Positions 14,739-32,270 of a DNA stretch of 64,000 nt are shown piece after piece. This stretch comes from a virus. The notes under the pieces are model-generated. The model made no database searches. It was not told the origin of the DNA and saw nothing but the letters and a program-made list of their open reading frames with translations. The position numbers and the translations under genes were made by a program. The DNA lies in the UHGV virus genome UHGV-1370141; one strand, written 5' to 3'. How positions within the stretch are numbered: position 1 is the stretch's first letter; every line of letters starts with the position of its first letter.

Positions 14739-15088
14739 CTGTTTGTCCACTCCATTCCTTTTGGAGCAGGTGTGCAATGACACCCTCCCATGTTTTCACA
14801 TGGGCACAGACTATATCATAACCGTAGGTATTGCTACCCGTAGGTCTCCCCCACTTCGCCGCTAAACTAAGCAGCTACTCTACTCGGTTTTACCCTTTCG
14901 ATAGTCGTTGAACGATTTTCATCGCTGCTGGTTATCCATTATCACAACCCTTAGCATTATTGGTTAGCATAGGCTATCTTACGAATTGTTTCTGACTTTC
15001 GCCACCCTGTCGGGATCGTAAGCTTTAGGAGTTTCCAGCAATTCGAGGGATACGCACTAGAGGTTTCCCGTCTAGTGGGCCAAATTTT
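14739..15088 (-). ncRNA. group I self-splicing intron (ORF-less, about 350 nt) interrupting the RNAP beta'-like gene
   Basis: Separates ...KAPNA from DFDGDQ...; 5' exon ends in U, intron ends in G; contains P-like ACGGGAAAC, Q-like AUCCCGACAG, R-like GUUCAACGACUA and S-like GAUAUAGUCU elements with complementary GACUA/UAGUC (P7). Confidence 0.8.
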
Positions 15089-16456
15089 AGCATTCGGAGC
15101 TTTGATGACGCGATCGGAGATACGTAACGAACACTGTGTAACATCAGGGTTAACAGCTGAGATAAATAATGTCTGAATAGACAACTGTACAAGCGTCGGG
15201 TTTCGTAGCGCTGATATCATCAGGCCGTAACCGCCACGAGACTCCTTAATAAGTTCGTTGATAATTTCATGAACCAACGGTACGTACTGCATTGATGCAA
15301 ATGCAATAACACGTTCACACTGCCGTGGTGTGAAGTTCCGTCGACCGAGTTTGTTTTCAATAGCTACAGATTCTAACGTCACTAGCCAACGCCAAGGTGC
15401 AATAACCTTCATAGCGTCATGCGGTTCTGAGATTGGAGAGATTGTTACACGACCACCCCACGGGATGTGTGTTGAACCTAACTTGGCACGATAGAATCCA
15501 GGTTTACCTTCCATCACCTCCTGACGATGGTCAATATAGAAGTACGCTAACTGGCGATTTGCTTTTAATGCGCGACTAATAATGAAATGGGTTGGGATGC
15601 GTCGTGCATTAGTATAAAGTAACGCGATGTTCTTAACCGCGTCTATTGCACCGGTATAAACAGGATCGATAAAGATACCCTGACGTCGTTCCTCCGTAAC
15701 GATCAGTTTGGGTGAAATGATTGGAAGATGAACCGGAAAGAAAGTGTGTGATTGTTCTTCGAAGAACTTTTTCCACTCTAAGCGAGTACGTTCGCTCTCA
15801 TATCGGTTATTTTTCGTTGGTGGATAAATTTCTTTCCAGACTTCAGGAGAAGTTAAGATATTGAATATTGTTCGATGGTGGTCAATAAAATTCCTAATGC
15901 CGCGTGGAACTTGATACTCGCTAAAGATACGTTTGATTATTCGGGATCGAGTACCTTCGTCTTTATCAGGTTTATAGCACGGATCTAACATCCACATCAA
16001 TAAATCAGAACCACGTTCTACGGTCACTTTGTTTCGGTTAAACTTCTTAAGTTTAGAACCGAAGAAAGCGTTAAACATCGACCAGAATCGTGGGTTAATA
16101 AAGTTGCCTATTTCCTCCGGGGCACGAATCCAGACTTCTGAAACAATACGATGTTCTGTCACTACATAGCCGCAGGTAGGACATCGCATACCGAGATTAT
16201 ATCGATGAACGATAGGTGCTTCACAATCAATACTACAAATGGGTGCCGAATTTAGCGTCTCGTCGACTGTCCGGTTCTGTAAGATTCGGTTAATCAACTC
16301 TGACGTCTCAATGGTGTCTTTATATTTCGCAACATCATTGATAATCATCGGCGGTTTATAGCCCTTTTCCTCCGCCTCTTTGAAAGCGTCACGTAACATT
16401 TTATCGTGACTGATTAATCGCCCTGATACACCGAAGTATTGTAATCTGTCTTTCAC
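15089..16456 (-). CDS. RNA polymerase beta' N-terminal-like subunit, exon 1
   Basis: GFYRAKLGSTHIPWGGRVTISPI resembles [32 protein letters not shown] resembles NRAPTLHRLGIQ; Cys cluster CPTCGY near the N-terminus; exon ends ...RVIKAPNA immediately before the catalytic motif. Confidence 0.75.
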
Positions 16457-28079: not shown

Positions 28080-28520
28080 TTATACTAATTCGGCAACGTG
28101 TCGTTCGTGGTAGAGCTCTGCTAACTGCTTCGTTTTAATACGTAACTCACCTCTGTCGTAAACTAATACCCGACCTGCCCCGTTTGTTCCTAACTCGGTA
28201 TAAATCGCTAAACCGTACCGTCTTACAAATTCAATTGCCGGGAACGTAAATTCTTCACCGTCACAACGAAACACCAACATACACCACGGATTAGGGTTTA
28301 GGTGCTTACGCTCTTTCCCGTCCGCCCACCGTAAACTAAATTCATTCCGATTACGATTCAACACACGTTCAACGAATCGCTCTACTAACTTACCGGTTGG
28401 CCCATCTTCAGGTAACGCTTGCCACACGGAGAAATGTCGTGACAGAAACGGACGAATAACCGCCGCTTCTTCGAATGAATAACCCATACCCATTAATCCT
28501 TCAATCGCATCTAATTTCAT
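28080..28520 (-). CDS. hypothetical protein
   Basis: 146-aa ORF with promoter-like motif upstream. Confidence 0.5.
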   Translation of the reverse strand: MKLDAIEGLMGMGYSFEEAAVIRPFLSRHFSVWQALPEDGPTGKLVERFVERVLNRNRNEFSLRWADGKERKHLNPNPWCMLVFRCDGEEFTFPAIEFVRRYGLAIYTELGTNGAGRVLVYDRGELRIKTKQLAELYHERHVAELV

Positions 28521-28564
28521 TTTATCAGTTCCTAAAAAGTCGAAGTAAACGTTTCACGCGAACA

Positions 28565-28587
28565 CTCACTAAAATAATATCTATCTC
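28565..28587 (-). promoter_or_regulatory. recurrent promoter-like motif (coding strand GAGATAGATATTATTTTAGTGAG)
   Basis: About 50 nt upstream of the 28080..28520 start. Approximate. Confidence 0.45.
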
Positions 28588-28599
28588 TAAAATTTTGCG

Positions 28600-28637
28600 A
28601 TAAAAAAGAATATACCTACCTCCTTTCGGAGGTAGGT
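28600..28637 (-). terminator. rho-independent terminator (ACCTACCTCC/GGAGGTAGGT stem family)
   Basis: Hairpin acctacctcc-tttc-ggaggtaggt with T-run on minus strand, downstream of the 28741..29388 gene; the same stem sequence recurs near 45825. Confidence 0.55.
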
Positions 28638-28740
28638 ACGTTCCCTGGCATCGGCATGAAACTACAGGATTAAACCCTTCAGGGCATGAGAATGGGCATT
28701 CTCGAAGGGCGGGCTTTAGCTTTCGGCAGAGCTAAACTGG

Positions 28741-29388
28741 TTATCTCAGGTTATCGATGGTTTTACCTTCACTGTTCATGATGTAAACCGCATCACCTGG
28801 ATAGAAAAATTCGTAAGCATCGTCGACATGTAACACGCCGATAGCCTCGTCAACAGAGTGCTTACCGCTACGGAGCTGATTCTGATAGAAAGTATCACCG
28901 TCTTCGTTGATCAACTCGCGGACTAATTCGACTTCTTGAGATGGAATTGCAAAAGACATCTCTTCTAGGGTAAACCCTACAAAACGGCACACAAAGTCGA
29001 CTGTTACCCCAGGAACATAAATTTCATCGACGGACGTTTCTCCGGTATCCGGATTAAACGGTCGAATAAAAACGACACGTCCAGATGGTGAGGTAGCTTT
29101 CTGTCCTGGAAATGCCCAGGCCCAACCGTCGGTGTTTTTCAGAAATGGGTAAATGGCAGTCAACGTTGACGCTATAAGCAGAGGATCTAACCCTATCAGG
29201 GTCTCATACTCAATCCGAGTGGGTTTTCTCGGCAAATCGATGGCGCTGTTAAAACATAATTCGTTATTTTCGCCGTTAACGACTTTAAGTGCTTCTTTGT
29301 AAACACGGGACATTTTGTCACCTAAACGTACACGTTCGTGTACAGTGATGACTCGATCACCGTTAATGATACGTTTAACTGTAAGCAT
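28741..29388 (-). CDS. hypothetical protein
   Basis: 215-aa ORF. Confidence 0.55.
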   Translation of the reverse strand: MLTVKRIINGDRVITVHERVRLGDKMSRVYKEALKVVNGENNELCFNSAIDLPRKPTRIEYETLIGLDPLLIASTLTAIYPFLKNTDGWAWAFPGQKATSPSGRVVFIRPFNPDTGETSVDEIYVPGVTVDFVCRFVGFTLEEMSFAIPSQEVELVRELINEDGDTFYQNQLRSGKHSVDEAIGVLHVDDAYEFFYPGDAVYIMNSEGKTIDNLR

Positions 29389-29828
29389 TTCTGTTACCTC
29401 GTTCTGTTACTACTACTCGTTCTGTTGTACGTCGCTATACCCCGACGTGTGGGTTAATGGGACGCGTTGAACGTCTGTTGAGGCGCAGCAGGCAGTGGCA
29501 GCAATGACAGCAAGGGCAGCAATGGTACAAACGCCAACGCGAATAAAAAACGCTACTGTCACTGAACACAGCTTCAGAATACTGACAATAACGCAAAAAG
29601 GGTGTCGCTAACGGGTGTCGAGCCCCAGCCTCGGTGTGTAGCCACGTCACCAGGCATAGCGACAAAGTTCGGTACTGGTCAAACACAGCATGACATGGGA
29701 CGATGAAGGTTTACAGGTGATCATCGACCAGTACCGTCGAGTTAACACGTAACTCTCAATTCACATTACAGGGTATTCACGTTACACTTAGGGGAAATAC
29801 CCAATAATTAAATTCTTGGTGGGTGCAG

Positions 29829-29894
29829 GTGGGAGGTTTTATCCTCCCACCGTACAACCGTTTAGGTGGTCTAACCACCAGGGTCTCACGACCC
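29829..29894. other. cluster of three consecutive perfect stem-loops (structured RNA or processing site candidate)
   Basis: ggtgggagg-tttta-cctcccacc, ggtggt-ctaa-accacc, gggtc-tcac-gaccc; no flanking T-runs; non-coding context next to the tRNA-like element. Confidence 0.35.
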
Positions 29895-30042
29895 TAACGT
29901 AAGTCCGAACTTAATCGGTAGGTGTTTACACGTTTTTAAGGAGCTTTCTACCCGTGAGCAAGAGCAGAAGTTATCAGAACAACCGACGCTCAGTTGAAGG
30001 CTGACGAGTTTGTAACTCTTGTTCGATTGCTCTAATCTGGGC

Positions 30043-30115
30043 GACCAATGGCAGGATTCGAACCTGCGAAATAACCGATTATTAGTCGGGTGTTAATTCC
30101 TCTAACTTCAATGGT
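30043..30115 (-). tRNA. tRNA-like element (about 73 nt; anticodon uncertain, possibly pseudo-tRNA)
   Basis: Perfect T-arm GCAGG-TTCGAAT-CCTGC, 7-bp acceptor stem with one mismatch, anticodon-like stem-loop CCGA-CTAATAA-TCGG; D-arm weak and no encoded CCA. Hand-folded only. Confidence 0.4.
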
Positions 30116-30124
30116 CTAAATCCA

Positions 30125-30625
30125 TCAAAACAGCTTAAGTGATTGCGTTTGTCCGCCGCTGTACAGGTCGTAACGTTTCGCCACTTCCACCGCAGTGGGG
30201 GCGTCAACGCCAGCGCCTAATGCACCCAGGGCATAGTGAGCACCTGAGCCTATCGCATACGGTGGCTCTACAAACACGTAACTGGCGTATTTGTTGTCTT
30301 TGCACTTCGAGGCATCAATAACACGCCCGTCTGTCAAAACAGCAAGTACGATAAATTCAATCTGTTCGGGATACGTCGTTTCAAAACGAACCCCACCCCG
30401 TTCGATACCGCCGAAACGTTCAAGCGTGAGTTCTTGACGCACGGATTGCAATGCGGCGACATCACCTGCCAAACCAATCGCTTTCACGTCCTCACCCAAA
30501 AGCTTCCACGTCGTACCCTCAGGCGGCGTGTGAATCTTACGGTATTGCGTAGCAGCGCTTCGCTCTTCCACGGTGACTTGGCCATCGCAAGCTAACGTCT
30601 TTCCGTCAAAAACAATCGTGGTCAT
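30125..30625 (-). CDS. HslV-like peptidase (proteasome beta-type Ntn hydrolase)
   Basis: From the internal ATG: MTTIVFDGKTLACDGQVT resembles HslV MTTIVSVRRNG..IAGDGQ.T (Thr nucleophile after Met); YAIGSGAHYALGALGAG resembles IAIGSGGPYAQAAARAL. The track ORF 30125..30736 extends upstream, but the HslV-type N-terminus and the TAATG overlap with the upstream ORF favour the start at 30625. Confidence 0.6.
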   Translation of the reverse strand: MTTIVFDGKTLACDGQVTVEERSAATQYRKIHTPPEGTTWKLLGEDVKAIGLAGDVAALQSVRQELTLERFGGIERGGVRFETTYPEQIEFIVLAVLTDGRVIDASKCKDNKYASYVFVEPPYAIGSGAHYALGALGAGVDAPTAVEVAKRYDLYSGGQTQSLKLF

Positions 30626-30969
30626 TATGGCGAACCCCAATCCATGATGAACGTAGCCATGCACTGCTCGGCGTGTTTCATGATAGCTTTGTGCAAGCAT
30701 CTCTGAACCGCTGAGAACAGGTAAGGCCGATAACACACATGCGACTCCTTGGGAGACGGGGTGTGAGTAACCAACTGACCATCGGTGAGTTTAACACAAA
30801 CCGTAACAAGCTCTGTGTTTCGCCAATGGTTCACTGACACTGTCTCGATGCAGTTTAGCAGCGACGAATCATAACAACCCCAATTCTCGGGCGCTTTTAG
30901 CAGCCTGCCCAATTCATCGAGTCGGTACGGGACATTCGAACCGATGTTCGGAACGTCTTTGGAATCCAT
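30625..30969 (-). CDS. hypothetical protein, translationally coupled to the HslV-like gene
   Basis: Track ORF 30625..31065 starts with GTG and no SD; ATG at 30969 (M33) is preceded by AGGAGA; its stop overlaps the HslV-like start (TAATG). Confidence 0.45.
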   Translation of the reverse strand: MDSKDVPNIGSNVPYRLDELGRLLKAPENWGCYDSSLLNCIETVSVNHWRNTELVTVCVKLTDGQLVTHTPSPKESHVCYRPYLFSAVQRCLHKAIMKHAEQCMATFIMDWGSP

Positions 30970-31619
30970 ATTAAAATCTCCTGCCGTGGTTTGTGTCACA
31001 CCAACAGGAAACTCTGTAAAAAATAATTCAGCTGCGTACCGGCGTTTCTCAACGGGAGTACGCACCCCTCTCGTCTTTGCGAGCCGTCAAGCTAGAGGAC
31101 ATCACACTGCCAGCGCTACCTGGAGCAGGGTTGTTTCGACGCAACGTCGTAATTCGGATTCTGGCCGCACCTCTGGGAGCGCATCCCACCGTCGGCTGCC
31201 CGCAGGTAAGTTCTACGGACCTCTCGCCAACGTCGCCCCCAGAGGCTGCCACGGTTCACTCGGATTTTCTCATGTCGGCCACGCGTCGCTGATAGCGCGG
31301 CTTCCCCCAAACTTCGTAAGTCGCGGGAACGGTACCGAGCACCTGAATTCGTGGGGTTTACCAACCCCTGAGGTTTTTATCCGAAGTCACGGAAACCCCA
31401 TAGTAAAACAAACCGCCAGTGTTAGGCCGAACGTTTTGTTTTTCCCAGCACACGGTGAACTAAAATCCATGCACTTGAAAAAACACCCCTGGCCAATAAC
31501 CAACCAGGGGGTTCGAGCTCTGCTGAATCATCGCAGACAGTAATCGTGTTGAGCTGTGAGCAGTAATACCTGAACTCCGAAAAATCTTCGTGGTTGTAAA
31601 TCAACCCCACGCAAATCCT

Positions 31620-31857
31620 CCGAACATACCATAGGGTTTTAACGTTCGGAAAAGGGGAATGGGGGTTTACCCCTTGGGTCAGGTGTTCAGGATCTCCCCG
31701 GAAGGGTAACCCCTACCCGATCCCCCAGGTGGGGATTTTACCCTGGCGAATTACCCCGGGTACGATTTTCGGTTTTTCCGGAAAATACCGCTCACCGATC
31801 CCCACCCCCTCACCGGGGGTCAGAGCGAGATCAGATCTCATAATAAGGATCGCGCGC
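31620..31857. repeat. G-tract / C-tract rich structured flank of the AT-rich core
   Basis: Runs such as ggggaatgggggtttacccc, ccccggaagggtaacccctacccgatcccccaggtgggg, ccccaccccctcaccggggg; non-coding. Confidence 0.4.
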
Positions 31858-32270
31858 GTTTTATATATATTTATATATAATATATATTATATATAATAAT
31901 TATATTATTAATATATTTATTTAATATATTTATATTTATTAAAATAAATATATATTAAAATATATAATTAAATAATACCAAAAGGTATTATTATTTTGAT
32001 CCTAAAGGAATAATATATTTATAAATAAATATATTATACTATACGTGTGCGCACGCACACGCGTATAAGGAAGAGATCTTGAGATCAGGTTTTTGAGAGA
32101 GTTAAATTTTTAAGATCGATCCGAGAGACTTGAGGTCTCTCGAGAGTATTTAAAAAACCAAGCAAGATAACTACTCAACTTGAATCTTCAGTGTGTGAAG
32201 ATTCAAAACGTTGATCCAATCACTTGATCCGTTAGTACGCGAAGCGTGAATGTTTTTTTGATCGGCACGG
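31825..32270. promoter_or_regulatory. GATC-dense, palindrome-rich region around the AT core (candidate replication origin / DNA unwinding element)
   Basis: About 11 GATC sites in about 440 bp (expected 1-2), including agatcagatct, agatcttgagatcag, agatcgatcc; palindromes cgagagac-ttgag-gtctctcg and gaatcttca-gtgtg-tgaagattc. Confidence 0.4.
31858..32045. repeat. about 185-bp almost pure A/T tract (TATA/TAAT-rich) bounded by alternating GC elements
   Basis: tttatatatatttatatataatatatattatatataat... bounded by gatcgcgcgcg on the left and gtgtgcgcacgcacacgcg on the right; extreme compositional outlier in a ~48% GC genome. Confidence 0.8.

Follow-up and report, generated by a model that had tools for sequence, protein, structure and literature searches.

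Our structural and comparative analyses establish that the 64-kb window, by which we mean the whole stretch of phage DNA analysed here, carries a real and conserved tRNA gene. They further suggest, with a confidence slightly above even, that it is a genuine phage tRNA gene from an unusual family of the SPN3US-like phages, in which a single C34-to-A34 change made a tRNA-Ile(AAU) out of an ancestor with a CAU anticodon. Its product most likely works as an isoleucine tRNA whose unmodified A34 reads AUU, as far as can be judged from sequence comparison. What was already known of this gene is a tRNA-Ile annotation in one RefSeq record; its descent from a tRNA with a CAU anticodon, the apparent repetition of that change and its place as the only tRNA retained by the phage are new, and our literature searches turned up no account of an AAU tRNA in phages or of the present tRNA family.

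ARAGORN calls only one tRNA in the window, a tRNA-Ile with anticodon aat at 30040-30116 on the minus strand (Table 1), and the Rfam tRNA model RF00005 matches the same strand at 30043-30115 with 40.1 bits against a gathering score of 29 (E = 5.2e-05 over the whole window), in an alignment that is full-length (model positions 1-71). The preliminary description of this DNA had proposed a non-canonical, tRNA-like element here and ARAGORN as a check on it, with the lack of any tRNA model hit among the grounds for rejection; tRNA models of both programs match. The minimum-energy fold is a cloverleaf of -19.8 kcal/mol (z = -2.2), and in NZ_CP173450.1, which is ~97% identical, PGAP labels these 75 nt as tRNA-Ile, taking the extra G as the first base. 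The hallmarks of a tRNA are present, namely a 7-nt anticodon loop CTAATAA with U33 and a purine at 37, the T-loop TTCGAAT and a D-loop GAGGAAT with G18-G19. The canonical core of a 7-bp acceptor stem, U8 and A14 is replaced by an 8-bp helix, an AA linker and a D-loop that starts with G. The features described from the letters alone are borne out: the perfect T-arm lies at 30067-30051 of the minus strand, the D-arm is indeed weak, with a stem of only 4 bp that is AU-rich (GTTA/TAAC) and a 7-nt loop, the odd anticodon loop has its AAT at 30083-30081, and the 3' end has no encoded CCA but is followed by GCC. The acceptor stem had been given as 7 bp with one mismatch, and the strands ACCATTG/CATTGGT with their one U.U do pair in this way; the helix, however, can be extended by an eighth pair, G30116-C30043, which stands at its top in the ARAGORN drawing and is followed by an unpaired G and then CC.

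Table 1. Features of the tRNA-Ile(AAU) gene and the adjoining HslV-like gene (positions in the window)
Feature	Position	Strand	Description
tRNA-Ile(AAU) gene	30040..30116	-	77 nt (ARAGORN); 8-bp acceptor stem, discriminator G30042, then CC
Acceptor stem, 5' strand GACCATTG	30109..30116	-	pairs with 30043-30050
Acceptor stem, 3' strand CATTGGTC	30043..30050	-	one U.U mismatch, kept in all clade members
D-arm GTTA-GAGGAAT-TAAC	30092..30106	-	G18-G19 present; no U8 or A14
Anticodon arm CCCGA-CTAATAA-TCGGT	30074..30090	-	four loop-proximal stem pairs invariant
Anticodon AAU (AAT)	30081..30083	-	A34 is 30083
T-arm GCAGG-TTCGAAT-CCTGC	30051..30067	-	perfect stem; canonical TTCGAAT loop
Spacer, stop codon to tRNA	30117..30124	-	8 nt; same gap in the PGAP annotation of NZ_CP173450.1
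HslV-like peptidase ORF	30125..30736	-	directly upstream of the tRNA; conserved core starts at ~30628

The proteins of the window are those of a jumbo phage that is sister to Seoulvirus (SPN3US) and has the same gene order, with conserved proteins (terminase, sheath, RNA polymerase subunits and structural proteins) 55-89% identical to those of SPN3US. A megablast search with 4 kb around the element gave no match among the INPHARED phages, and relatives were detected only through blastn, tblastn, pattern scans and the E. coli and plasmid collections. The same phage is found in NZ_CP173450.1 (p98232-contig_4 of E. coli strain 98232, a circular 'plasmid' of 221,873 bp, about 97-98% identical to the window) and NZ_CP134650.1 (a circular 'plasmid' of Enterobacter ludwigii, 222,441 bp, ~97% identical), as well as in two ~224-kb metagenome contigs, two IMG/VR contigs and one 'Bacillota' MAG contig (JAEWFE010000254.1). 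The two 'plasmids' come from an E. coli urine isolate and an E. ludwigii from a gull, respectively, and together with the MAG contig they look like mislabelled or carried phage genomes; since such genomes occur in E. coli and Enterobacter assemblies, the host is probably an enterobacterium. The clade with the AAU anticodon comprises eight genomes, the window among them, drawn from distinct samples and assemblies. In the complete 221,873-bp relative both PGAP and ARAGORN find exactly one tRNA gene, which is the AAU element, while related phages have from 2 to 11. Elsewhere in the window a group I intron (RF00028, 63.7 bits) lies at 14787-15099 on the minus strand between two ORFs without a Pfam match, and because the segment 14737-15088 is missing from the 98%-identical NZ_CP173450.1, this intron is a presence/absence polymorphism.

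The tRNA gene stands beside an HslV-like gene, as had been noted, and begins 8 nt past the stop (TGA, 30127-30125) of an ORF that matches phrog_1040 'peptidase HslV family' over residues 37-202 (E = 2.3e-35) and has ~34% amino-acid identity to SPN3US gp001. A scan for sigma-70 promoters and intrinsic terminators gave nothing beyond shuffle expectation, as one expects of a phiKZ-like phage, and a sensitive Rfam scan of 28500-32000 returned no tRNA relics near the element. Several other features of this region were observed. At 29389-29434, which is intergenic, only 1 of 46 columns varies among six clade genomes, against 12-14% in the adjoining DNA. Two short segments that flank the tRNA locus appear to be local replacement cassettes: 28945-29221 cannot be aligned with NZ_CP173450.1, JAEWFE010000254.1 and one more relative, nor 30625-30967 with another relative, all of them otherwise 92-98% identical. 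A second non-coding element of ~80 nt, with its sense on the minus strand, occupies 31013-31094 and is 84% identical to SPN3US 1064-1145, and it has the same place in the two phages, upstream of the HslV-like gene. A hairpin, GCGTAC...GTACGC, forms its core, and GCTGAATTATTTTTTACAG comes after it; SPN3US shows one compensatory pair in the stem, the fold z is only -0.8, and the element could be a terminator, a promoter or a leader.

Around the locus, this ~80-nt element and the tRNA are the only DNA that blastn aligns with SPN3US-like phages. The tRNA is 85-89% identical to the copies of the SPN3US group (85% to that of SPN3US itself), whereas the proteins encoded on either side are 24-37% identical and the DNA of their genes is unalignable. 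In Seoulvirus, Machinavirus and Erskinevirus the homologue is part of a cluster of tRNA genes that lies downstream of the HslV-like gene, under labels that are inconsistent from one relative to the next (tRNA-Ile2(cat), tRNA-Ile, tRNA-Met(cat) or none), and jumbo phage annotation has also called members of the family Asp or 'OTHER'. We aligned 19 distinct homologues and assessed 22 pairs against 500 shuffles, with partners slid by 1-3 columns as a control. Standard pairs fill 91.4% of cells and 13 of the 22 pairs show changes on both sides, values for pairing and covariation that none of the 500 shuffles reached, while slid partners pair in 28-50% of cells. Covariation is seen in 7 of 8 acceptor pairs (the top G-C being invariant in 19/19 homologues), in 2 of 4 D-stem pairs (U12-A23, alignment columns 15:25, being invariant) and in 4 of 5 T-stem pairs; in the anticodon stem the four loop-adjacent pairs are invariant in sequence and 27:43 is unpaired in all 19. 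The comparison thus strongly supports a cloverleaf for the family as a whole.

The label 'non-canonical' given by the preliminary description is correct, and we find that it applies throughout the family. An 8-bp acceptor stem, the lack of U8/A14 and of an encoded CCA, an unusual D-arm, the 27:43 mismatch and a variable discriminator are family-wide, and RF00005 scores are 30.6-45.6 bits (38.3-40.2 in the AAU clade, 44.5 for the copy of Proteus phage 10 and 30.6 for that of SPN3US) against 48-76 bits for ordinary tRNAs of the same clusters. SPN3US-group copies are missed by ARAGORN, and several have imperfect stems. One subgroup, for example pEa_SNUABM_8 at 2495-2591, has an extra hairpin of ~23 nt in the variable region, which itself shows compensatory change (CCCGG..CGGG versus CCTGG..CAGG). 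In SPN3US a 'tRNA-OTHER' beside the family member (2929-2998) has an anticodon loop of only 3-4 nt, and the family copy of EC001 (2501-2581) has mismatched, chimeric T-stem halves, GACGG with CCCTGC; from their sequences, both look like cases of tRNA decay within the SPN3US group.

Such features raise the question of whether the family decodes at all. A tRNA-shaped RNA might instead serve as an RNase P processing signal for the 3' end of the HslV-like mRNA, or as a decoy or ligand for a protein, in which case the invariant anticodon stem-loop could be read by an anticodon nuclease, by TilS, by an acetyltransferase toxin or by some other protein of host or phage. We consider a non-decoding RNA unlikely. 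It would account for a family whose members are all non-canonical and score below their neighbours, whereas in Proteus phage 10 the other six tRNAs of the cluster have a canonical form and an encoded CCA, and it is consistent with an anticodon stem conserved in sequence without covariation, with the tolerance of a 23-nt insertion in the variable region of some members, with the persistence of some SPN3US-group copies despite imperfect stems and with the placement of the gene directly against the HslV-like gene. However, U33, A37 and A38 are kept, the T-loop and G18-G19 that make the L-shape are intact, the stem pairs that specify isoleucine identity are conserved, and an invariant anticodon loop is more than a pure processing signal needs. 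Moreover, SPAsTU has an ordinary tRNA-Trp in the same place after HslV, so that this position does not demand an RNA of the AAU/CAU family.

A decoding tRNA, the reading that we prefer, leads to its isotype. The anticodon arm, CACCCGACT-NAT-AATCGG, is the same as in the CAU homologues and in the lambdoid prophage tRNA-Ile(CAT) that adjoins the Q antiterminator gene, save for position 34. Using the bacterial tRNA identity sets compiled in PMC9976931 and counting the extra G as +1, we found that the pairs of the isoleucine set are kept, with C4-G69 in 18/19 homologues (a match that holds only in this register), U12-A23 in 19/19 and C29-G41 in 19/19, and that A35, U36, A37 and A38 are present as well. 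The set for elongator tRNA-Met (C34, U4-A69, A5-U68) does not fit, the window having A34 and the pair 4:69 being C-G in 18 of the 19. Because the isoleucine determinants are kept and the U4-A69 of tRNA-Met is missing, the ancestral member of the family is best read as a lysidine-type tRNA-Ile2. Two further positions bear on recognition by IleRS: the enzyme's determinant at position 34 is G or a modified C (PMC9976931) and here the base is A, and for A73 the base after the acceptor helix among the eight clade genomes is A in four, G in three and U in one.

The likeness to tRNA-Ile2, which carries a CAU anticodon with C34 modified by TilS (e.g. in Erwinia phage pEa_SNUABM_29 and lambdoid prophages), extends to homology and synteny with the jumbo-phage copies. 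The C34 on which TilS acts is nevertheless absent, with A34 in the window and the seven other clade genomes, so no lysidine is possible and the tRNA should read AUU rather than AUA; it also differs in its 8-bp acceptor stem and in lacking an encoded CCA and U8/A14. On these comparisons we place the window tRNA as a descendant of the tRNA-Ile2 family and not as a functional member of it. An 8-bp acceptor helix, here closed by an invariant G-C, is otherwise known from bacterial tRNA-His (G-1:C73) and tRNA-Sec (8/5), but the anticodon here is not GUG or UCA, past the C there is one more unpaired base and then usually CC, and the register is that of the isoleucine determinant C4-G69 and not of the histidine identity set.

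The 14 other aligned homologues all have C at position 34, where the window clade and Proteus phage 10 have A, and a looser-pattern scan of IMG/VR found AAT in the window clade only. The AAU gene of Proteus phage 10 is unannotated, its syntenic proteins are 23-35% identical to those of the window, and it has a perfect 8-bp acceptor stem with many compensatory differences from the window copy. When position 34 is left out of the tRNA sequences and a bootstrapped neighbour-joining tree is built from the rest, the window clade joins the CAU tRNAs of the SPN3US group in 82% of bootstraps and Proteus phage 10 joins the CAU tRNA of Asesino in 96%, while all AAU tRNAs come together in only 0.2%; on this tree there appear to have been two separate C-to-A changes. 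We rejected a single origin of AAU on that last value together with the low identity of the two phages' proteins, and a sequencing error at position 34 on the presence of A in eight independent genomes. Two genes labelled 'tRNA-Ile(aat)', in the Erwinia phages Huxley (1388-1484, 97 nt) and Asesino (1360-1480, 121 nt), were considered and set aside as separate and dubious genes beside the family member, ARAGORN reading the first as an Ile(aat) with a long variable arm and the second as an intron-containing Arg(acg). Every substitution at position 34 of CAU yields an isoleucine anticodon, so that remaining within the isoleucine codons is not in itself a sign of selection.

How would such a tRNA be made and used? 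We suppose that its transcription accompanies or directly follows that of the HslV-like gene, that host RNase P would cut its 5' end and host exonucleases trim its 3' end, that the host CCA-adding enzyme would supply CCA, and that host IleRS would charge it with isoleucine. With A34 left unmodified it would then read AUU by Watson-Crick pairing and AUC weakly, and host TilS would no longer be needed. A CDA-type deaminase motif was found neither in the window, nor in 49 kb of Proteus phage 10, nor in the whole 221,873-bp relative, and the last has no annotated TilS or aminoacyl-tRNA synthetase; given these searches, maturation and charging must rely on host enzymes. Since position 34 is one of the determinants of IleRS, as noted above, A34 may lower charging. 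A tRNA whose AAU anticodon was unmodified decoded, in E. coli, AUU at 4.5%, AUC at 0.43% and AUG at 0.27%, with AUA below detection and no inosine detected (PMC11066159), and E. coli tolerated an engineered Ile-tRNA(AAU) or gained mildly from it (10.64898/2026.05.15.725136). These engineered and orthogonal tRNAs resemble that of the window in bringing A34 into bacterial translation, where they are active, prefer AUU and are tolerated; that of the window is unlike them in being natural and phage-encoded and, as we suggest, derived from CAU and held by purifying selection. Codon usage offers no convincing explanation for the change. The phage writes its isoleucine codons as ATT in 49%, ATC in 45% and ATA in 6% of cases, AUU being the commonest at 30.5 per thousand codons, and compared with SPN3US ATA is slightly rarer and ATT slightly commoner (chi-square p = 0.002), an effect that is small and confounded with GC content, while Proteus phage 10, which also bears AAU, uses ATA heavily (23%).

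The same A34 could instead be deaminated to inosine, by host TadA or by an unrecognised enzyme, in which case AUU, AUC and AUA would all be read and the AUA role of the ancestor kept without lysidine. The genomic anticodon AAU is shared with eukaryotic tRNA-Ile(IAU), which is encoded as AAU and deaminated by ADAT2/3. Functional continuity with an AUA-reading ancestor would be attractive, the loop CU-AAU-AA differs from that of the TadA substrate tRNA-Arg2 at positions 35-36 only (PMC11066159), and a 2026 preprint reports that in E. coli at least one A34 tRNA other than that for Arg, namely Phe-AAA, undergoes A-to-I modification (10.64898/2026.05.15.725136). Here, however, there is no enzyme of the ADAT type, bacterial TadA is specific for ACG-like loops (PMC11066159; 10.64898/2026.05.15.725136), none of the three phage sequences searched has a CDA-type motif, and no inosine was reported on AAU in E. 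coli (PMC11066159), so that we hold inosine at this position to be rather improbable and retain an unmodified A34 as the preferred reading.

Whether the gene is still under constraint was judged from those six genomes of the clade in which the region is fully covered. Among them 3 of 77 columns of the tRNA vary, against 47 of 353 (13%) in the flanking intergenic DNA (Fisher p = 0.018) and 43 of 165 (26%) at third codon positions of HslV (Fisher p = 1.4e-5). All three variable sites are neutral for the structure, one being a partner in the 27:43 mismatch, one turning a T-stem G-C into G.U and one being the unpaired base past the acceptor helix. These counts suggest purifying selection on the tRNA of the AAU clade, with limited power, since the clade is shallow (86-97% identical). 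They also bear on the idea that the gene is a decaying relic, the last copy of a cluster lost in this lineage and inactivated by its anticodon mutation, which we regard as very doubtful. A relic would fit the loss of all other cluster tRNAs from this lineage, when relatives have 2 to 11, the U.U mismatch in the acceptor stem and the degenerate state of copies in the SPN3US group, which ARAGORN misses and which include the chimeric T-stem of EC001 and the neighbouring 'tRNA-OTHER' with its 3-4 nt loop. Yet the variation is low and structure-neutral, the window copy is better formed than that of SPN3US (40.1 vs 30.6 bits, and detected by ARAGORN), and A34 appears to have arisen independently in the perfectly paired tRNA of Proteus phage 10. 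The preliminary description had left a functional phage tRNA, a degraded one and a tRNA-like structure side by side; the first is favoured by the covariation of the family, the apparent purifying selection in the AAU clade, the 85% identity to SPN3US and the retention of this tRNA as the only one, while degradation is disfavoured here and fits some of the SPN3US-group copies.

A last possibility, that the top pair is a G-1:C73 of the tRNA-His type by which host HisRS would charge a missense tRNA and put histidine at AUU, draws on the invariance of the top G and C in 19/19 homologues and on the role of G-1/C73 as major bacterial histidine determinants whose transplantation gives minihelices histidine acceptance (PMC9976931), but it is extremely improbable given an anticodon of AAU or CAU and not GUG, an isoleucine determinant C4-G69 that is in register only with this G as +1, the placement of G at +1 with a separate discriminator by both PGAP and ARAGORN and the extra unpaired base after the C, and the harm to the phage of exchanging isoleucine for histidine across its proteome.

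Our comparison exposes an inconsistent annotation of this tRNA family across jumbo phages, where its members have been called Ile, Met, Asp, 'OTHER' or nothing. It also provides, in a tractable host, a locus with a natural AAU tRNA that appears to be under purifying selection and is the sole tRNA of a ~222-kb phage, and makes it possible to test whether unmodified A34 is tolerated or useful in vivo, whether IleRS accepts A34 and what a phage gains from one extra isoleucine tRNA. Outside Arg-ACG, A34 tRNAs are nearly absent from bacteria and archaea; non-ACG A34 tRNAs account for 695 of 246,393 bacterial tRNA genes, 81% of them from four-fold degenerate codon boxes, and the cause of this avoidance is an open question (10.64898/2026.05.15.725136). 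At present we can only put forward as a tentative and somewhat doubtful proposal that selection has twice turned a lysidine-dependent tRNA-Ile2 (CAU) into a tRNA-Ile(AAU) with unmodified A34, and that one lineage kept only that tRNA. If this is true, the change would bring a specific benefit, for example isoleucine decoding that is independent of TilS, or the replacement or protection of host tRNA-Ile under attack by defence systems or toxins, and the family would stand as a natural exception to an avoidance of A34 that is near-universal in prokaryotic systems.
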